DNA of 64,000 nt from Escherichia coli (GTDB lineage: Bacteria > Pseudomonadota > Gammaproteobacteria > Enterobacterales > Enterobacteriaceae): assembly GCF_017348835.2 (NCBI RefSeq), contig NZ_CP071375.1; one strand, written 5' to 3'. The notes beneath the pieces are model-generated. The model had not been told where the DNA came from, searched no databases, and saw only the letters and a program-made list of their open reading frames with translations. The position numbers and the translations under genes are program-made. Positions 8,435 to 18,665 of the stretch are shown here, piece by piece. How positions within the stretch are numbered: the first letter of the stretch is position 1; every line of letters begins with the position of its first letter.

Positions 8435-10330
<1,896 letters not shown>

Positions 10331-10358
10331 TAATCCTCCCGCCAGAAGAATAAAACAT

Positions 10359-10391
10359 AGCCCGGTATACAAGTGTATACCGGGCTTTTTT
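10359..10391. terminator. Bidirectional terminator between parE and the TonB-dependent receptor gene
   Basis: Hairpin cccggtatac...gtataccggg followed by TTTTTT; between convergent stops. Confidence 0.6.
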
Positions 10392-10393
10392 GA

Positions 10394-12535
10394 TCAAAAT
10401 TCCATTTTCACCGTGAATTGCACTTCACGCGGATCGCCAATCTGATTCCCCAGATTATTTGTGGCGATGGAAGAGGTGTAATACGTTTTATCAAACAGGT
10501 TTTTGACGTTTAATTGCAGTGTGACCGGATACTGCAATTTCATTTTGTATGCGGCGAAGGCATCGGCAACGAAATAGCCTGGCAGATAATAGTCAGCCCC
10601 ATTGGTTGCCGAACGACGGCTTACGCCATGTCCACCACCGCCAAACGTCAGTGTGTTATTGCCTGGCATGTTATGAATGTCATAGGTCAGGAATAGCGAA
10701 CCGGTATGACGAGGAACATTCGGCAATGGTTTCCCTGCATAATCAGGATCTTCCAGAACCTTAGCATCGGTATAGCCGTAGCTGGCAATGATATTAATGT
10801 TTTCAGTTAATGCTCCCGCAAGGTCGACTTCTACCCCTCTTGAACGAACGCGGCCTGCCGTTTTGGCGATGGTTTCATCACCAATACTTTCGGTATACAA
10901 CACGTTACGTTTATGGATATCAAACAGCGCAATATCTGCGGTTATACCATCGAACAGCTCGAATTTTGCCCCGACTTCGTAAGCATTAGATGATTCCGGT
11001 GGAAGATCTCCGATGTAGCTGGCAATTGACGATTGCGGCATAAATGTTTGCGAATAATTAGCAAATAAGGATACCGATGGCGTCAGTTTGTAGACTAACC
11101 CCAGTTTGGGCGTCCATTGTTCATCGCGGCTGTCAGTATTGACATTAAAAGGACGGCCTTTACCCGCATACTGCGTGTAATACTGATAGCGGATCCCGGC
11201 GACGGCAATCCAGTTATCGGTCAGATAGAGCGCGTCCTGTGCATAAGCTGAGTAGCTCTCCTGTTTGATCGTCTGATCACTGTCCGACGCCGAAACCGTT
11301 GTGCATTTGCTGGTATTGCCATAAACGGGGTTGTAGATATTGAAATCTTTAGCGTTTTTACAGCGAATCATATCTGTGCGCAGAAGATCATAATATTCAT
11401 ATGACACCCCACCCAGAATCTCATTATAGAACCCAGCAATATCAACATTCCCTTGCAGATCCGCACGAGTAGAATGCATACGCTGGGTAGATCCCTGAGT
11501 TGCATCAACACGCCGTGTCAGCGTTCCTGTCGTTGCATCATACGCGGTAACGCGAGCCTGATTGTCGCTGTATTTATCCTGGCTGTAGCTGTAATCAAAG
11601 CGCGCTGTCCACTGGCTATTGAGATGATATTCTGCGTTGAGTTGCGCCAGATCGGACTGACCATCTGTAATATTAAACGGTTCGTCAAAACGTATTTTTC
11701 GATCAACGTTTACGGGCTGTTTCGTCGTAAGGTCGAAAATCGTTCCACGATCGAACGGAGTTTTATAGTCCCGATGGGAATAGAGCATGGTTACTGTTGC
11801 ATTATCACCAAACCAGGTGAGTGACGGGGCAATAAATGTACTGCGCTCTTTACCGAAGTTTCGCCAGTAATCTTCATCCTGCACTTCCCCCGTCAGGCGG
11901 TATGTCAGCTGAGTGCCTTCAATGGGACCTGTGATATCAAGTTGCCCAGTGCCTCCGCCAAAACTGGAGGACGTGGCTGAGACAGAACCATGGAATGTTT
12001 TTTCCGGGCGCTTGGTCACGACGTTAATCAATCCACCAGGATCGAGAATGCCATACAGCGTGGAGGCCGGACCTTTTAGCACTTCCACACGTTCTGTGGC
12101 GGCGTTGAAACTGCGAGGAAGTACAGTTCGCAGACCGTTGGTCATGATGGAGCCATCCCGGTTAGCACCAAACCCACGACGTACAAAGGCGTCCTGAGTT
12201 CCGCCTAATGTATTGGTCTGTACCACGTTACTGACGTTATAAAGCGCTTCATCCAGCGTCGTTGCATTCTGATTTTCCAGAACCTGATCGCTAACCGTAT
12301 TGACCACCTGCGGAATATCCAGCATCGGCATATCGGTTAATGTCGCCGTGGAAGTGCTCAGAGGTTGATAACCATCGGTCGCCTCAGTTGCGGTATTTGC
12401 ATCCGCTGTAACAGTGATTGTTTCGCCATCTTTGGTCGTTGCAGTGTCGGTTGCATGAATCATTGGTGCTGCAAAGAGCAGTGAAAAGAGCGCCCGACCT
12501 TTGATTCCTGAGAATGAAGGTGTGAACTTAGCCAT
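10394..12535 (-). CDS. TonB-dependent outer-membrane siderophore/iron receptor (accessory, not in K-12 at this site)
   Basis: 713 aa; signal peptide, TonB-box-like ETITVTA, plug-domain motifs, C-terminal aromatic residue (..KMEF); similarity to fitA is from memory only. Confidence 0.85.
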   Translation of the reverse strand: MAKFTPSFSGIKGRALFSLLFAAPMIHATDTATTKDGETITVTADANTATEATDGYQPLSTSTATLTDMPMLDIPQVVNTVSDQVLENQNATTLDEALYNVSNVVQTNTLGGTQDAFVRRGFGANRDGSIMTNGLRTVLPRSFNAATERVEVLKGPASTLYGILDPGGLINVVTKRPEKTFHGSVSATSSSFGGGTGQLDITGPIEGTQLTYRLTGEVQDEDYWRNFGKERSTFIAPSLTWFGDNATVTMLYSHRDYKTPFDRGTIFDLTTKQPVNVDRKIRFDEPFNITDGQSDLAQLNAEYHLNSQWTARFDYSYSQDKYSDNQARVTAYDATTGTLTRRVDATQGSTQRMHSTRADLQGNVDIAGFYNEILGGVSYEYYDLLRTDMIRCKNAKDFNIYNPVYGNTSKCTTVSASDSDQTIKQESYSAYAQDALYLTDNWIAVAGIRYQYYTQYAGKGRPFNVNTDSRDEQWTPKLGLVYKLTPSVSLFANYSQTFMPQSSIASYIGDLPPESSNAYEVGAKFELFDGITADIALFDIHKRNVLYTESIGDETIAKTAGRVRSRGVEVDLAGALTENINIIASYGYTDAKVLEDPDYAGKPLPNVPRHTGSLFLTYDIHNMPGNNTLTFGGGGHGVSRRSATNGADYYLPGYFVADAFAAYKMKLQYPVTLQLNVKNLFDKTYYTSSIATNNLGNQIGDPREVQFTVKMEF

Positions 12536-12908
12536 TTAGTCTGTTATCCCAAAAACTCACGGATTGTCGTGAGTGAAAATTGTTTCTTGTTGCTCACTAA
12601 GCACTATCCGTTTGTTATTTCACCATCGGATATGTAATTGAGAATCATTCAACCATGCGCTGATGTAGTAGTAAATGAGAAATAACAAAAAATTGCTACA
12701 TGTGTTTTTATGAGAGGTTAATGCAATTCAATTGATGGTAATTTATTAATATTTAATGGTTTTATTTTTATCTTTAAAAATATTTCACCTATTATTTACC
12801 TTGTTTTTGTATGGCTTTTAACTTCTTGACTACTACATTTTGTGGCGTCAAACTCTCAAAGGAGAATGAGTTTTATTTTTGTTTGTCTTTGATTAAGTTG
12901 GCGTACAC
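12536..12908. promoter_or_regulatory. AT-rich divergent promoter region for receptor gene and ABC operon, with Fur-box-like element near 12634-12652
   Basis: About 370 bp AT-rich intergenic between divergent starts; gagaatcattc resembles half of the Fur consensus GATAATGATAATCATTATC. Confidence 0.35.
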
Positions 12909-13718
12909 GTGGCACATAACGCAAAAGGGCAGGGGCTGATCCTCGACAATGTTTCTGCCGGGTATCACAAGAAAATCATTGTTGATGGTGTTTCTTTCTC
13001 CGTTCCCACAGAAAAAATGACCGTTCTGGTTGGGGCAAACGGCTGTGGAAAGTCGACGTTGCTCAGCACCATTGCACGTATCTTGCAACCCATGGGCGGC
13101 TCAATATTGCTGGATGGTAAAGCGATTCACGAGCAACCAACGAAAGCGTTATCCCGTAGACTTGGGATCTTGCCGCAGTCGCCATTATTGCCGGAGGGCT
13201 TAATCGTTTATGAACTGGTGTCGCGTGGGCGTTTTCCCTGGCAGAATTTCATTCGTCAATGGAGCGACGCCGACGAGCAGGCGGTAGAAGAGGCTCTGAA
13301 ATTAACCGGTACGCAGGAGTTTGCTCATTTACCTGTTGAAAAACTCTCTGGTGGGCAGCGCCAGCGTTGCTGGATTGCGATGGTGTTGGCGCAAAAGACG
13401 CCTTATATCCTACTGGATGAACCCACAACCTGGCTTGATTTACGTTATCAGGTTGAAATTCTTGAGTTATTACATGATTTAACGCGTCATCACGGGCGTA
13501 CAGTCGTCGTGGTGTTGCATGATCTGAATTTTGCCGTCAATTATGGTGATACGTTGATATTTTTACGCCAGGGGAAAGTGGTGCGTGTGTTGAATGAGGG
13601 GGAGCATTGCACGCCTGAGCTGGTAAAAGCTGTCTTTGACGTTGATGTTCACGCATCAATAAATCCTCTGTCGGGAAAGCCGTTCTTCATGCCGTTTCGT
13701 GGTGTAGAAAAAGTATGA
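12909..13718 (+). CDS. Iron-siderophore ABC transporter ATP-binding protein (FecE/FepC-like)
   Basis: Walker A GANGCGKST, signature LSGGQRQR, Walker B ILLDEPT; start codon appears to be GTG. Confidence 0.85.
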   Translation: MAHNAKGQGLILDNVSAGYHKKIIVDGVSFSVPTEKMTVLVGANGCGKSTLLSTIARILQPMGGSILLDGKAIHEQPTKALSRRLGILPQSPLLPEGLIVYELVSRGRFPWQNFIRQWSDADEQAVEEALKLTGTQEFAHLPVEKLSGGQRQRCWIAMVLAQKTPYILLDEPTTWLDLRYQVEILELLHDLTRHHGRTVVVVLHDLNFAVNYGDTLIFLRQGKVVRVLNEGEHCTPELVKAVFDVDVHASINPLSGKPFFMPFRGVEKV

Positions 13719-14698
13719 TGCGCACAGGGCTGGTTACTGTAATTTTCCTCGCCTTACTGCTGGTGGGATGCGTGGTATATCCAGGGATTGGTGCCCGATT
13801 TATTGCACCACAAACGGTGTTGCAGGCATTTCTTCATTTTGAACCGCAAAACTTCGATCACAACGTAATTGTAAGACTCCGTTTGCCGCGTTTAGCGGCA
13901 GCATTGCTTACCGGTGCTTCTCTTGGAGTTGCTGGTGCTTTGTTGCAGGCTGTCATTCGTAACCCATTGGGGGAGCCACATATTTTAGGCTTAAATGCCG
14001 GAGCCGCTCTTGCTGTCGTTGCTGCCAGTGCGCTTGGGCTGGCCTTTCCGGTTGGACGCCCACTGCTGGCATCTACGGGCGGCGCGTTATTGTTCCTGTT
14101 GATATTGCTGCTTTCCTCCGCAGGGCGTTCAGGGTTAACGCCAATGAAAGTTACTTTATGCGGCGTGGCGCTATCGGCGTTCGTGTCCTCAATAACGGCT
14201 GCAATCCTGATTCTTGACGAACAAACACTGCTGGCGATGCGGACATGGCTAGCAGGTGATTTAGCGGGGCAGGATTGGGTGACGCTGGGTACGTCCGCCT
14301 GGTTTTCTCTGGGGGGATTTGTGTTAGCCATTTACCTTGCGCCCTCTCTTAACATGTTGGCACTGGGTGATCGCATGGCGCAGGGGCTGGGCGTCTCGGT
14401 ACTCCGCACGCGAACATTCACCCTGCTTGCGATCGCGTTGCTCTGTGGCGCAGCCGTATCGATTGCTGGCCCCATTGGTTTTGTCGGTCTGCTAGTACCG
14501 CAGATTGTCAGGCGTCTGGTATCAGCGGATCTGCGCGTTCTGCTCCCTCTTTCAGCTTGTGTCGGCGCGCTTTTGTTATTACTGGCAGATATTATTGCTC
14601 GGACGCTCTTCACGCCCCATGAGTTAGCGACCGGTGTCATGACGGCGTTAGTTGGTGCGCCTGTTTTTGTCATTATGGCGACGAGGATGTTCAAATGA
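13715..14698 (+). CDS. Iron-siderophore ABC transporter permease (FecCD family)
   Basis: 327 aa polytopic membrane protein; start overlaps ATPase stop. Confidence 0.8.
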   Translation: MMRTGLVTVIFLALLLVGCVVYPGIGARFIAPQTVLQAFLHFEPQNFDHNVIVRLRLPRLAAALLTGASLGVAGALLQAVIRNPLGEPHILGLNAGAALAVVAASALGLAFPVGRPLLASTGGALLFLLILLLSSAGRSGLTPMKVTLCGVALSAFVSSITAAILILDEQTLLAMRTWLAGDLAGQDWVTLGTSAWFSLGGFVLAIYLAPSLNMLALGDRMAQGLGVSVLRTRTFTLLAIALLCGAAVSIAGPIGFVGLLVPQIVRRLVSADLRVLLPLSACVGALLLLLADIIARTLFTPHELATGVMTALVGAPVFVIMATRMFK

Positions 14699-15744
14699 GT
14701 CGGATAATGAACGTCGGGCTACGCCCACTACGTGTTGGTAAGTTTTCGACACTGGTACGCCCTAAAAATCTGGTGTTGCTTGGTGGGCTGTTTCTGTTTG
14801 CGGTTGGAATACTGATATTCGGTCTGATGCATGGTTCTTTTTCTGTCCCGGCATCGGAAGTAGGACGAGCGTTGTTTGCTCCAGAAAACGTAAGCACAGA
14901 CGCACGTTATATTGTGCAGGATATTCGCTTGCCGAGAGTCATCATGGCATTGCTATGCGGAGCCATGTTAGGTATGGCGGGGGCCGCGATGCAATCCATT
15001 GCGCGTAACGGCCTTGCCGATCCTGGTTTAATCGGCGTCAAAGAAGGATGTAGCGTGGCGGTGCTGTGGCTGATTATCCAGTTTCCAATGCTGGGAATGT
15101 TCTGGCGTCCAGTGGCTGGTCTTGCTGGTGGCTTGTTGGTGGCTTTAATCGTGATTTTTTGTGCACGCGATATTTCCCGCCCGCGATTTGTTCTGATTGG
15201 TATTGGTGTTTCCTGGTTTTTCGCCGCCGGTATCGGTGTATTTATGACCACTGCAGATGTTCGAGATGTACAAACTGCATTGATGTGGTTATCGGGAAGC
15301 CTGCATGCAGCAAACTGGATGTTAGTCGGTATTTCAGCCTGTTGGATGTTGCCAGCCGCTCTTTTATTGCTGTTCACCGCCAGGACGGCGGATATCGCTC
15401 TGCTTGGTCATCAGGTTGCAACCGGGTTAGGGGTGAATAGTTCTCGTCTGGCGTTGTTACGTGTCGCCGCACCAATAATCCTGACAGCCGTCTGCGTTTC
15501 GTGTGTTGGTAACATCGGTTTTGTCGGATTGATAGCACCCCATATATCACGTTTTATTCTACGTGGCGGGCAGACGACATTACTGCTGGGGAGCGCGGTA
15601 TCGGGGGCGTTGTTAGTTATTCTGGCGGATAGCATTGGTCGTTTGGCTTTTTTGCCTTTGCAACTGCCTGCAGGAATCATTATCTCACTGATTGGTGGGC
15701 CATTTTTTTTGCTACTGCTCTGGCAGCGCAGGAACAGTTTTTAA
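14695..15744 (+). CDS. Iron-siderophore ABC transporter permease (FecCD family), second copy
   Basis: 349 aa polytopic membrane protein; start overlaps preceding stop. Confidence 0.8.
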   Translation: MSRIMNVGLRPLRVGKFSTLVRPKNLVLLGGLFLFAVGILIFGLMHGSFSVPASEVGRALFAPENVSTDARYIVQDIRLPRVIMALLCGAMLGMAGAAMQSIARNGLADPGLIGVKEGCSVAVLWLIIQFPMLGMFWRPVAGLAGGLLVALIVIFCARDISRPRFVLIGIGVSWFFAAGIGVFMTTADVRDVQTALMWLSGSLHAANWMLVGISACWMLPAALLLLFTARTADIALLGHQVATGLGVNSSRLALLRVAAPIILTAVCVSCVGNIGFVGLIAPHISRFILRGGQTTLLLGSAVSGALLVILADSIGRLAFLPLQLPAGIIISLIGGPFFLLLLWQRRNSF

Positions 15745-15754
15745 TGGGAGTTAT

Positions 15755-16702
15755 ATGCGTTTATTTTTTTCTCTGCTGATACTGTTGTCATTCTTTGCCC
15801 GCGCGACAGAACCTGTTCAGGTCTTTACTGATGATTTAGGGCGCAAAGTCACTGTTCCTGCTCATCCAAAGAGAATTGTCTCTTTACACGATCTTGATAT
15901 CACTATTCCTCTGATTGAGCTCGGTGTACCTCCTGTCGCCAGCCACGGGCGAACCCGGCCTGACGGTAGCCATTTCATTCGATCAGGCGCGTTATTGACA
16001 GGTGTCGACTTTGATAATTCATCGATCGCTTTTATTGGCACCGCTGATATTGATATTGAAGCGATTGTGGCGGCAAAGCCTGATCTGATTATCACAGAAC
16101 CGACCCGTAATACGCCCATTGAACAACTGGAAAAAATTGCGCCCACGGTGAGCATTGATCATCTCAAAGGAGGCGCGCCAGAAATCTACCGCAAGCTGGC
16201 AGAACTGACAGGAACGCAGTCGCAGCTGGCGATACTTGAACGCCGCTATCAGGCACAAATCAATGCGCTGAAGGCGACGCTGGACAGCCAAAAAATAACG
16301 GTATCGGTGATTCAGGCAAATCAGGGAAAAATTAATGTGATGCATAGCTATCATTCGCTGGGGCGGGTATTACGCGATGCTGGTTTTCGCTTTCCGCCGC
16401 TGATTGAGAGCATTCCTGAAGGTGGGCGAATGGATGTGAGCGCGGAGCGTTTACCTGAACTGGATGCCGATTTTGTTTTTGCAACCTGGCGCGGTGACAC
16501 CGGTGGTAAACCTCAGGATGAGCTGGCAGCAATGGAAAAAGTCATGCCGGGATGGTGTCAGTTTCTGACTGCCTGTCGTTCCGGGCGTTATGTGCTGATT
16601 TCTCGTGAAGAGGCAATTTCTAACTCCTTTGCATCTCTGGGGCTGATGGCTGCGCAGATACAATCACAAATTGCGGGACGACCTCTACCGGAGGCTAAAT
16701 GA
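15755..16702 (+). CDS. Periplasmic iron-siderophore binding protein (cluster A substrate-binding protein)
   Basis: 315 aa from MRLFFSLLILLSFFARA (signal peptide), GGAG-like RBS upstream; ORF-track start is an upstream extension. Confidence 0.75.
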   Translation: MRLFFSLLILLSFFARATEPVQVFTDDLGRKVTVPAHPKRIVSLHDLDITIPLIELGVPPVASHGRTRPDGSHFIRSGALLTGVDFDNSSIAFIGTADIDIEAIVAAKPDLIITEPTRNTPIEQLEKIAPTVSIDHLKGGAPEIYRKLAELTGTQSQLAILERRYQAQINALKATLDSQKITVSVIQANQGKINVMHSYHSLGRVLRDAGFRFPPLIESIPEGGRMDVSAERLPELDADFVFATWRGDTGGKPQDELAAMEKVMPGWCQFLTACRSGRYVLISREEAISNSFASLGLMAAQIQSQIAGRPLPEAK

Positions 16703-17586
16703 TCCAGAAAGACAAAACGCGGGTTGATATTTATGGTGAGCGTTTTCGCACTCGCGCGAGTCAGTTAACGCCTGGGTTAAGAGCTGTCGCAAGCTACATT
16801 AATGAGCATCGTGAAGTGGTACTCGAGCAAACGGCGATGGAAATTGCGGCCACGTTGAACACTTCCGATGCCACAGTTATCAGGGCTATACAGGCCCTGG
16901 GGTTTGCCGGGCTGCGTGATCTGAAACGCACTCTGGAACAGTGGCTTGGTCCAGCCCTTAGTTCCAGCGAAAAGATGTCTACGACGGTGAGTAACTTGAC
17001 GAGCGATGTTAACACCGCAATCGACTTTGTTCTTGAAGGGCATTTGTATACCTGTAATGTCCTGTCAGAGCCTGAAAACCGCCACGCGCTTGCGCAAGCT
17101 GTAGCGTTGTTGGTACAGGCACGGCAAGTCGCAATTTTTGGCATTGGCGCTTCGGGTATTCTGGCGGACTATACCGCACGACTATTCAACCGCATAGGTT
17201 TGCCTGCCACGGCACTAAACCGTACGGGTATTGGCCTTGCCGAGCAACTGATCGCGCTTCAACGTGGCGATGTTCTGATCATGATGGCGCAAAAATCTGC
17301 GCACCGGGAAGGACTGACAACGCTGCGTGAAGCGAGACGGCTGGGGATCCCTGTTATTTTGCTGACAAACGCGCTGGATTCACGTTTTAGCAAAGACGCC
17401 AGTATCGTGATTCATGTTCCGCGCGGGGATGAAAAGGGGAAAACGCCACTACATGGTACGGTATTGTTGTGCCTGGAAATGATTGTTTGGTCGGTGGCTT
17501 CCGCGATGCCGCAGCGTGCGGTTAAAACCATTAAGCGAATTAACGATTTCCATCGGGGTTTGAAAACAGGAAGAAAGAATGGCTAA
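16699..17586 (+). CDS. RpiR/MurR-family transcriptional regulator (HTH_6 + SIS domain)
   Basis: 295 aa; N-terminal HTH, central SIS-type fold (VAIFGIGASG); start overlaps stop of binding-protein gene. Confidence 0.75.
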   Translation: MIQKDKTRVDIYGERFRTRASQLTPGLRAVASYINEHREVVLEQTAMEIAATLNTSDATVIRAIQALGFAGLRDLKRTLEQWLGPALSSSEKMSTTVSNLTSDVNTAIDFVLEGHLYTCNVLSEPENRHALAQAVALLVQARQVAIFGIGASGILADYTARLFNRIGLPATALNRTGIGLAEQLIALQRGDVLIMMAQKSAHREGLTTLREARRLGIPVILLTNALDSRFSKDASIVIHVPRGDEKGKTPLHGTVLLCLEMIVWSVASAMPQRAVKTIKRINDFHRGLKTGRKNG

Positions 17587-17594
17587 TCTGACCT

Positions 17595-17622
17595 GAGGCC
17601 GGTAGCAACACCGGCCTTTTTC
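17595..17622. terminator. Terminator after RpiR-family gene, facing ygiN stop
   Basis: Hairpin ggccgg...ccggcc followed by TTTTT. Confidence 0.55.
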
Positions 17623-17629
17623 AGGAATG

Positions 17630-17944
17630 TTAAATCCCCGGTTGCAGAATACGGATATTCATCTCCAGCACGTCGCCTTTTACGGCTTCGCTGTACGCCT
17701 TCATGTGCGGGGTTTGCAGATGCGCTTCAAGGTGCGCGATGCTTTCCCACTGCTCAATCATCACGATAGAATCCGGTGCCATAGACTGGAAACTCACGCC
17801 AGCAGCGCAATCCACCATTGGCGCATAGCCGTGGCAACCTTCTTCTTTCAGTACGGTTGGAACGATTTTAGCAAACTGATCCAATACCGCCTGACGGTGA
17901 TGTTGACCAGGACGAGTACGGATTTCTGCGATTACGGTAAGCAT
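17630..17944 (-). CDS. ygiN: Quinol monooxygenase YgiN
   Basis: 104 aa, ABM-domain; follows mdaB as in K-12. Confidence 0.9.
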   Translation of the reverse strand: MLTVIAEIRTRPGQHHRQAVLDQFAKIVPTVLKEEGCHGYAPMVDCAAGVSFQSMAPDSIVMIEQWESIAHLEAHLQTPHMKAYSEAVKGDVLEMNIRILQPGI

Positions 17945-17974
17945 GGTTAACTCCTTCTAAAGCCTGAGCTCTAG

Positions 17975-18556
17975 TTAACCAAAAATTTCCACAAGATGCT
18001 TGCGATATTCTTCAGTATAGCGGGGAACATCAGGCATTTTTATCACGTCATTAGCGATAAATGTCGGCAGCGGTTCCATACCGAGGAATTGGTTTGCTTT
18101 ATGGAACGACAGATACACACCGTCAACGCCAACGCCGTGGAAGAACTGATCTTTTTCGGTGAAGGCTTCCATTGGTGCGTTCCAGGTTAGAGAAAGCATA
18201 TATTTTTTGCCCTGTACCAGGCCGCCGGAACCGTATTTTTTCGACGGATCTTTGCGGGTACGACCATCGCTGGCATACAGAGTCCCGTGACCTTCGGTGA
18301 ATACATCATCAATGTATTTTTTCACTGTCCACGGCGCGCCCATCCACCAGCCTGGCATCTGCCAGATCACCACATCAGCCCAGAGAAAGTTTTGTACTTC
18401 CGCTTTGACATCGTAGTCGCTGTCGGCGCGAACGATGCGAACATCATGCCCGAGGTCGCGCAGTGTGCCATCCGCGACTTCGGTCAGGGTGTCGTTCAGT
18501 TGACCATTGGAGTGGGCGAATTTTTTCACGCCGTTGATAATCAGGATGTTGCTCAT
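17975..18556 (-). CDS. mdaB: NADPH:quinone oxidoreductase MdaB
   Basis: 193 aa flavodoxin-like fold protein (MSNILIINGVKKFAHSNGQLN...). Confidence 0.9.
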   Translation of the reverse strand: MSNILIINGVKKFAHSNGQLNDTLTEVADGTLRDLGHDVRIVRADSDYDVKAEVQNFLWADVVIWQMPGWWMGAPWTVKKYIDDVFTEGHGTLYASDGRTRKDPSKKYGSGGLVQGKKYMLSLTWNAPMEAFTEKDQFFHGVGVDGVYLSFHKANQFLGMEPLPTFIANDVIKMPDVPRYTEEYRKHLVEIFG

Positions 18557-18665
18557 TTTTTAACCTCAAGGTGAGACGTTTGCCAACTATAGTACGTCAC
18601 AGAGCGGTACGGTGAAATTAGCAAAATGTGCAAAGTCTTTTGCGAATTTAGCAAAAGTCTTACCC

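Follow-up and report, generated by a model that had tools for sequence, protein, structure and literature searches.

The Fit iron-acquisition system of Escherichia coli reportedly goes back to work by Ouyang and Isaacson in 2006 (Infect Immun 74:6949). A later paper by the same authors in the Open Microbiology Journal in 2008 described a receptor (fitA), an ATPase (fitB), two permeases (fitC and fitD), a binding protein (fitE) and a regulator with helix-turn-helix and sugar-isomerase (SIS) domains, fitR (PMC2593036). In that study, dipyridyl induced fit-lacZ fusions, Fur repressed fit, with strong derepression in a fur mutant, and purified FitR shifted the fitA-fitB intergenic fragment in electrophoretic mobility shift assays, FitR being a repressor of its own locus. 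Dual repression by Fur and FitR, acting independently, is thereby established by Ouyang and Isaacson, with the exact sites of both proteins left as future work (PMC2593036). The subject of the present analysis is the 7.2-kb interval between parE and ygiN in a stretch of E. coli DNA of 64,000 nucleotides (contig NZ_CP071375.1), referred to below as the window. This interval is the published fitABCDER locus, and so represents Fit itself rather than a merely Fit-like cluster.

The comparison with the fit genes of strain i484 was made at the primer level, by way of the published primers. Each of the 18 fit primers listed in PMC2593036 finds its site in the gene where it should lie, on the right strand, in the right order and with zero to three mismatches, and the control primers for fepA, gst and polA show no mapping onto the window. 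Matches are exact for the fitA quantitative PCR primers (11715-11791) and for those of fitB and fitD, and the fitC primers carry one or two mismatches; amplicons of the fit primers measure 60-96 bp on the window. The primers used to clone and express fitR span the gene from its ATG (16699) to its final sense codon (17583), and the published "fit promoter" primers bracket the control region (12557-12915). Mature FitE is identical at 295 of 297 residues to the protein of PDB entries 3BE5 and 3BE6, the latter named Ec-FitE (PMC10553834). In addition, a 2026 genome comparison of extraintestinal pathogenic E. coli (ExPEC) and adherent-invasive E. coli lists "GR22, ygiN..parE, 7193 bp, fit operon" (PMC12928451). 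Given the primers, the FitE match and the published position, the locus was already known. Its regulator, the FitE structure, the position and the link with extraintestinal and adherent-invasive E. coli are likewise published: fitA is a marker enriched in B2 adherent-invasive strains (PMC9409007), FitA is a Novartis ExPEC vaccine antigen, and the antigen ECOK1_3457 has been linked to Fit (PMC3374390). A literature search with "fitABCDE" retrieves only the Pseudomonas Fit insect toxin, which is unrelated.

The five plus-strand genes fitBCDER are tightly packed and divergent from fitA, as seen from the open reading frames (ORFs) and their Pfam domains, which agree with the gene set described in PMC2593036, and the GC content of the coding regions is 0.46-0.58. 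FitA, which is without an N-terminal signalling extension, scores 371.9 bits against TIGR01783, a siderophore-receptor subfamily model with a cutoff of 223.5. It reaches no cutoff among the NCBIfam equivalog models for FhuA (230.8 bits against 803), FoxA (164 against 1300), FhuE (163 against 666), BtuB (43 against 600), Fiu, FecA and FauA. PRK14050, an unnamed siderophore-receptor equivalog, gives 238 bits against a cutoff of 884, slightly above the FhuA score. Among solved structures, the best match of FitA is the enantio-pyochelin receptor, with FoxA, FhuA and FptA as the others, all at 130-170 bits, and the nearest relative of FitE after itself is YfiY (E 1e-15). No genes of the size of non-ribosomal peptide or polyketide synthases were found beside fit when ORFs of at least 800 aa were screened in 80 loci. 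As far as the sequence goes, the Fit substrate is not assignable by homology. In the proposed transport scheme, FitA, energised by TonB, would take up a ferric chelate through the outer membrane, FitE would ferry it across the periplasm, and FitCD with FitB, as a type II ATP-binding cassette (ABC) importer, would bring it into the cytoplasm.

Most of what an earlier note on this DNA had claimed for these genes holds. The gene content and order that it gave agree with the ORFs and Pfam domains, and the "resemblance" to Fit turns out to be identity, on the grounds of the primer mapping, the FitE comparison and the published ygiN..parE position. The iron-uptake role that it proposed is supported by that identity together with the siderophore-receptor model, and its receptor is indeed of the siderophore type and not of the B12 or carbohydrate type, as the TIGR01783 and BtuB scores indicate. 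Its statement that the substrate cannot be read from the sequence stands as well, with no equivalog cutoff reached and the substrate called unknown in the literature. It was also right that parE is directly followed by ygiN in K-12, where the locus is absent: strain BW25113 has only a 47-bp spacer at this point and no fit genes.

The distribution of the locus was surveyed by megablast of positions 10000-18000 against 5426 complete E. coli genomes, which were without phylogroup labels. The parE and ygiN flanks were matched in 5425 of them. In 1870 the locus was present in full, without exception on the chromosome and at the parE-ygiN site. Beyond E. coli, a scan for FitR across GTDB species, each represented by a single genome, listed 80 loci, on which the window proteins were then placed by tblastn. 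The order parE-fitA/fitBCDER-ygiN-mdaB occurs in Escherichia whittamii, Escherichia sp. MOD1-EC7003 and one further Escherichia species representative, and also in many Enterobacter species, Silvania and Huaxiibacter. At all three depths compared (within E. coli, among Escherichia species and across genera), the fit genes have diverged about as much as the core genes that flank them. Nucleotide identity to the window is 96.6-98.4% for fit and 95.2-99.0% for the flanks in the E. coli cerebrospinal fluid (CSF) isolate N68 (~97% across the locus), 93.9-94.6% and 89.5-95.9% in E. whittamii, 92.1-97.0% and 92.6-97.4% in Escherichia sp. MOD1-EC7003, and 67-79% and 68-86% in Enterobacter and relatives. 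The ORF list and Pfam reveal no integrase or transposase ORF at the locus, and it has no tRNA and no flanking direct or terminal inverted repeats. Since synteny is shared, divergence is concordant with the flanks, and mobility genes, tRNA and repeats are lacking, loss in the K-12 lineage is preferred: in the simplest reading, the locus looks ancestral, having stood at its site since before the split of Escherichia and Enterobacter and been lost in the lineage to K-12. It would thus be vertically inherited in both genera and deleted in a lineage that includes K-12, that is, variable but not a recent insertion.

The edges of the polymorphism can be placed by comparison with the empty site. The K-12 spacer contains a hairpin of its own. 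Its 5' arm (AACATTGCCCGGT) and that of the left hairpin in the window are homologous, with AACAT[A/T]GCCCGGT shared (0 of 2000 shuffles), so that the left presence/absence boundary falls inside the parE terminator, at ~10367; the right boundary lies just before the ygiN stop, at ~17620-17629. A breakpoint inside the parE terminator is not a discrete attachment site. The earlier note had both ends coincide with hairpin terminators, and strong hairpins are found at both ends; its left boundary of 10392 does not hold.

Regulation is exerted through the divergent fitA-fitB control region. The intergenic DNA was aligned for E. coli, Salmonella, Kosakonia and Erwinia-type loci and then for 56 loci from many genera, and four invariant blocks stand out amid otherwise unalignable, AT-rich sequence (Table 1). 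Blocks 2 and 3 hold inverted copies, 150 bp apart, of a 13-mer, TT(G/T)ACTACTACA, one on each predicted -35 region. Both copies are at least 95% conserved in the 56 loci, and they are the only sites in the 64-kb window at up to two mismatches. At up to one mismatch, 125 sites occur in 1.65 Mb of fetched loci, which is about the number expected if each full cassette has two and each Pantoea-type locus has one. Of 23 scanned loci of the Pantoea, Serratia and Rahnella type, nearly all have an element of the form TGTAGTAGTAAA between the regulator and receptor genes. Because the 13-mer also occurs beside FitR-like regulators that are paired with unrelated receptors, it is likely the FitR operator. 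The HexR half-sites TGTAGT and TGTAAT resemble the TGTAGTAGT core found here.

Blocks 1 and 4 are Fur-box-like. The predicted fitA promoter lies in block 1 on the minus strand, with TTGAAT as the -10 element (12652-12647) 17 bp after TTTACT. A sigma-70 scan finds no promoter in the control region, and the proposed promoters derive from cross-genus conservation. The Fur consensus GATAATGATAATCATTATC has no match in the window at up to three mismatches, and an Rfam search of 10200-17800 (E of 1 or less) returns only a spurious microRNA match and hence no known riboswitch or small RNA. The 373-bp region serves the divergent transcription of fitA and fitBCDER and is repressed independently by Fur-Fe2+ and FitR, as established by Ouyang and Isaacson. 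According to the scheme favored here, Fur would bind the conserved sites at 12634-12652 and 12862-12880, and FitR would bind the two inverted 13-mers over both -35 elements, possibly with looping between them.

Two further features of the control region were noted. In the 5' leader of fitA (12605-12632) there is an inverted repeat, TATCCG...CGGATA, which reads TGTCCG...CAGACA in Erwinia-type loci, with a variable loop length; the apparently compensatory change suggests an RNA hairpin, for which there is no Rfam match. A mini-ORF, MSFIFVCL* (12866-12892), lies in the predicted fitB leader and overlaps the second Fur-like site. It stays open at 6-8 codons in Salmonella, Kosakonia and Erwinia-type loci (MSFISICI*, MRVIFI*, MSFIFI*), the length difference being an in-frame 6 nt. 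As a leader peptide it was rejected, since only 1 nt separates the Shine-Dalgarno-like AGGAG from the ATG and other genera do not preserve this motif.

When all of this is taken together, it can be stated with high confidence that the locus is the fitABCDER iron-acquisition system, that it operates by Fit uptake under repression by Fur and FitR, and that it is an old vertical resident that was deleted in the K-12 lineage. Several points weigh against this account. The transport step is generic, because no substrate-specific equivalog model comes near its cutoff. The 13-mers overlap -35-like hexamers, and their conservation could in part be that of promoters, not of a FitR operator. The two Fur-like sites match the Fur consensus at 12 and 13 of 19 positions, which is no better than the window background, and they therefore rest on conservation and the published fur genetics. 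The right half of the K-12 spacer has no significant similarity to the fitR-ygiN spacer (334 of 2000 shuffles), nor is there a clean deletion scar. No locus from E. albertii or E. fergusonii is among the 80 listed FitR loci. Finally, the cassette occupies other sites in Kosakonia, Erwinia, species of the Klebsiella oxytoca group and, rarely, Salmonella, so some horizontal movement clearly occurred. The last two points can equally be claimed for the reading of the earlier note, in which an islet was acquired horizontally into an ancestrally empty parE-ygiN spacer in the carrier lineages. The six-gene cassette, found in unrelated contexts in Kosakonia, Erwinia and Salmonella, can move; K-12 and roughly two thirds of the complete E. 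coli genomes are without it; and the fit-less E. coli strains sampled have one spacer structure in common at the empty site. Against this reading stand the synteny shared with several Escherichia species and Enterobacter, divergence in step with the core flanks at three phylogenetic depths, the lack of any integrase or transposase, of a tRNA and of direct or terminal inverted repeats, and a left terminator hairpin common to the occupied and empty forms. Such an acquisition is quite improbable, and the term "inserted" is probably wrong for this locus.

With vertical residence and loss preferred for its history, the alternatives that concern function turn on the substrate. Fit might provide redundant uptake of hydroxamates (ferrichrome, ferrioxamine, coprogen), functionally equal to FhuA or FhuE with FhuBCD. 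FoxA and FhuA are indeed among the nearest solved receptors (E about 1e-44 to 1e-48), the FhuA and ferrioxamine models of NCBIfam are among the top partial matches, and homologues are annotated in databases as "ferric coprogen receptor FitA" or "iron ferrichrome receptor". Yet these matches fall far under the equivalog cutoffs, as with the 231 of 803 bits for FhuA, the top solved match is the enantio-pyochelin receptor, and the closest other relative of FitE is YfiY at merely E 1e-15. The FitE structure, reportedly by Shi et al. in 2009, is said to have an arginine-lined pocket, from which an anionic siderophore was concluded; ferrichrome and coprogen are neutral. The Fit substrate is stated in the literature to be unknown and not enterobactin (PMC5907654), and a hydroxamate role is considered unlikely. 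A receptor and transporter for a non-iron substrate, such as cobalamin, a carbohydrate or another metal chelate, would fit the RpiR/SIS type of regulator, typical of sugar-phosphate metabolism, the occurrence of FecCD permeases in B12 and haem importers too, and a description that relates fit to the uptake of Fe2+, Co2+ and Cd2+ (PMC12928451). It has very little credibility, though, beside a receptor that passes the siderophore-receptor subfamily model and scores 43 bits against a cutoff of 600 for the B12 receptor, expression that is induced under iron limitation and strongly derepressed in a fur mutant (PMC2593036), and the iron regulation of a putative Klebsiella pneumoniae counterpart, a gene annotated fitA (PMC5907654).

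How FitR might be released from its operator is a related question. Its nearest solved structures are 8K3B, 8JU9 and 4IVN, none of the equivalog models for MurR, HexR or AlsR is reached, and the GIGASG loop of the SIS domain is conserved among FitR orthologues. A literature search combining RpiR with siderophore receptors turned up nothing relevant. In the proposed mechanism, FitR would be freed by a small anionic, possibly phosphorylated, effector at the SIS domain. A broader and rather doubtful extension of this idea is that FitR and its relatives form an unrecognised class of ligand-sensing regulators of siderophore uptake across the Enterobacterales, in which the chelate, or a phosphorylated or anionic breakdown product of it, releases the repressor from the 13-mer, the substrate being an unusual anionic chelate. 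In that case, the chelate may be one bearing a sugar acid or phosphate, of plant or microbial origin, and not a classical hydroxamate or catecholate. Hints in this direction are that the regulator and operator pair accompanies two unrelated receptor types, that plant-associated genera are prominent among the carriers, and that fitE and fitR are separated in some Erwiniaceae operons by genes for a PepSY reductase-like protein and for two phosphate-binding proteins like PstS.

Table 1. Features of the fit locus, its flanks and its candidate control elements, in window coordinates.
Feature	Position	Strand	Basis or remark
parE, topoisomerase IV subunit B	8438-10330	+	Pfam DNA_gyraseB, Toprim, HATPase_c; RefSeq annotation of identical loci; left core flank
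Bidirectional hairpin terminator common to parE and fitA	10359-10386		Terminator scan; 12-bp stem on both strands, then T run; minimum free energy -22.9 / -27.7 kcal/mol
fitA, TonB-dependent siderophore-type outer-membrane receptor, 713 aa	10394-12535	-	Plug (PF07715) and beta-barrel (PF00593) domains
fitA/fitB divergent control region, 373 bp	12536-12908		AT-rich, GC down to about 0.34
Block 1, ATGTAATTGAGAATCATTCAA	12633-12652, conserved on to 12656		Fur-like core TGAGAATCATT and putative fitA promoter elements
Fur-box-like site 1, GTAATTGAGAATCATTCAA	12634-12652		Overlaps predicted fitA -10; invariant across genera
Candidate FitR operator A, block 2, 13-mer TTTACTACTACAT	12663-12675	-	ATGTAGTAGTAAA in block listing; overlaps predicted fitA -35
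Candidate FitR operator B, block 3, 13-mer TTGACTACTACAT	12826-12838	+	Overlaps predicted fitB -35
Fur-box-like site 2, block 4, GAGAATGAGTTTTATTTTT	12862-12880		Just downstream of predicted fitB transcription start; conserved across genera
fitB, ABC ATPase, GTG start	12909-13718	+	ABC_tran; start as in RefSeq
fitC, FecCD-family permease	13715-14698	+	PF01032
fitD, FecCD-family permease	14707-15744	+	PF01032; RefSeq start, in-frame ATG at 14695 possible
fitE, periplasmic binding protein, 315 aa, signal peptide ~18 aa	15755-16702	+	Peripla_BP_2
fitE, longest ORF	starts 15692	+	ORF list
fitR, RpiR/MurR-family repressor	16699-17586	+	HTH_6 (PF01418) and SIS (PF01380) with GIGASG loop; Pfam above cutoffs
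fitR-ygiN hairpin terminator	17595-17618		9-bp GC-rich stem, then TTTTT; minimum free energy -20.9 / -20.5 kcal/mol
ygiN, ABM-domain quinol monooxygenase	17630-17944	-	Pfam ABM; RefSeq annotation; right core flank

Relatives of the locus in other genera show considerable variety. FitR-like regulators, 66-69% identical to FitR, stand divergent from a different TonB-dependent receptor (35-38% identical to FitA) in Pantoea, Serratia, Rahnella, some Erwinia and Tatumella. In these Pantoea-type loci (L054-L089; for example L069, 7400-10870, from Pantoea agglomerans), the receptor gene is followed by one for a binding protein of 380 aa, and neither a permease nor an ATPase is encoded. The TGTAGTAGTAAA element is present in these loci, some of which are located on Pantoea megaplasmids (L077, L086). 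Between fitE and fitR, three loci of Erwiniaceae type (L005, 7007-10004; L045; L047) encode a PepSY_TM protein along with two phosphate-binding-like members of the PstS family. L005 is labelled Pseudomonas cerasi; its neighbourhood is Erwinia-like, so it may be mislabelled or contaminated. In Tatumella sp. JGM118 (L050, 10945-17223), and also in L053, fitBCDE-fitR occurs without fitA beside a Fus-type cluster for plant-ferredoxin uptake, made up of a TonB-like FusB, FusA (4ZGV, E = 0) and the M16 protease FusC (6B03, E 5e-257); between fusC and fitR there is nothing resembling fusD. This adjacency was considered as a clue to the substrate and set aside as probably coincidental, since the fus promoter has canonical Fur boxes and no FitR 13-mer.

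Insertions next to fitR are also observed. In Enterobacter asburiae (L016, 10999-16351) and many other Enterobacter, ~6 kb of sugar-utilisation genes lie between fitR and ygiN, encoding an AraC regulator, a DUF2264 protein, a LacY-type symporter and a GH88-like hydrolase. The insert is absent in L015, L020, L024 and L048, and in some loci fitR abuts ygiN. Erwinia sp. E602 (L007, 11923-17859) has an insert 1-7 kb downstream of fitR relative to the related L006, with an MFS_3 (EntS-like) exporter, an ATP-grasp enzyme, a FAD/NAD(P)-binding oxidoreductase and an arylamine N-acetyltransferase-like protein, and this may be a small biosynthetic cluster. A rare whole cassette in Salmonella enterica (CP191473.1; L008, 3692-10888; 79-83% nucleotide identity) lies away from parE-ygiN, with pitA/yhiN-like genes on one side and a type VI vgrG-Rhs module on the other, and has an ATP-grasp gene just downstream of fitR.

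Two observations concern variation at or near the site within E. coli. Strain MB06173, a fit-less isolate from seawater, carries a gene for a major facilitator superfamily transporter and IS1A between parE and ygiN, in place of the 47-bp spacer (NZ_CM129884.1, 705532-708229). A second hotspot of gene presence and absence lies 1 kb away from fit, in the mdaB-qseC spacer: this spacer is only ~110 bp long in the window (18557-18665), K-12 has ygiZ there, and in the CSF isolate N68 it holds ygiZ together with a hypothetical gene and an orphan hcp of type VI secretion.

As K-12 appears to have lost the locus, the usual account of fit, as an accessory island that was acquired, probably has the direction of change the wrong way round. 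The identity, anatomy, distribution, synteny and conserved control elements of the locus were observed directly in the present analysis, and the iron- and Fur-repressed, FitR-autorepressed expression (PMC2593036) and the FitE structure (3BE5/3BE6) were shown by others. New here, as modest additions drawn from sequence comparison, is the anatomy of the control region, namely the 13-mer candidate operators and the two conserved Fur-like boxes. Since the FitR and Fur sites were named as future work in the 2008 paper (PMC2593036), these elements are concrete and specific candidates for them. In addition, the FitR-operator module is widespread in plant- and gut-associated Enterobacterales and offers a comparative handle on the identity of the substrate.

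Compared with known systems, the locus is the same as Fit of E. coli in its six genes, their order and orientation, the sequence at the primer level, the sequence of the FitE structure and the ygiN..parE position. The window allele is ~99% identical to the fit genes of O157:H7 and ~97% identical to those of a second E. coli group that includes human clinical isolates, such as the CSF strain N68. The FhuA/FhuE-FhuBCD and FoxA systems are alike in having a TonB-dependent receptor, a cluster A binding protein, FecCD-type permeases, an ATPase and Fur control. In contrast to this shared plan, the Fit receptor is similar to theirs at the family level only (150-170 bits to solved receptors), its permeases are two separate proteins whereas FhuB is fused, and it has a dedicated RpiR/SIS repressor that the Fhu systems are without. 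A locus-specific regulator on top of Fur is also found with the FecIR sigma/anti-sigma pair and with the AraC-type regulators PchR, YbtA and AlcR. FitR differs in being neither an activator nor a sigma factor but an RpiR/MurR-family repressor with a SIS domain, and FitA lacks a signalling domain at its N-terminus. The sugar-phosphate repressors HexR, MurR and RpiR share with FitR the HTH_6 plus SIS architecture, including the conserved glycine/serine loop GIGASG, but control carbohydrate metabolism, whereas FitR controls an iron-chelate transporter.

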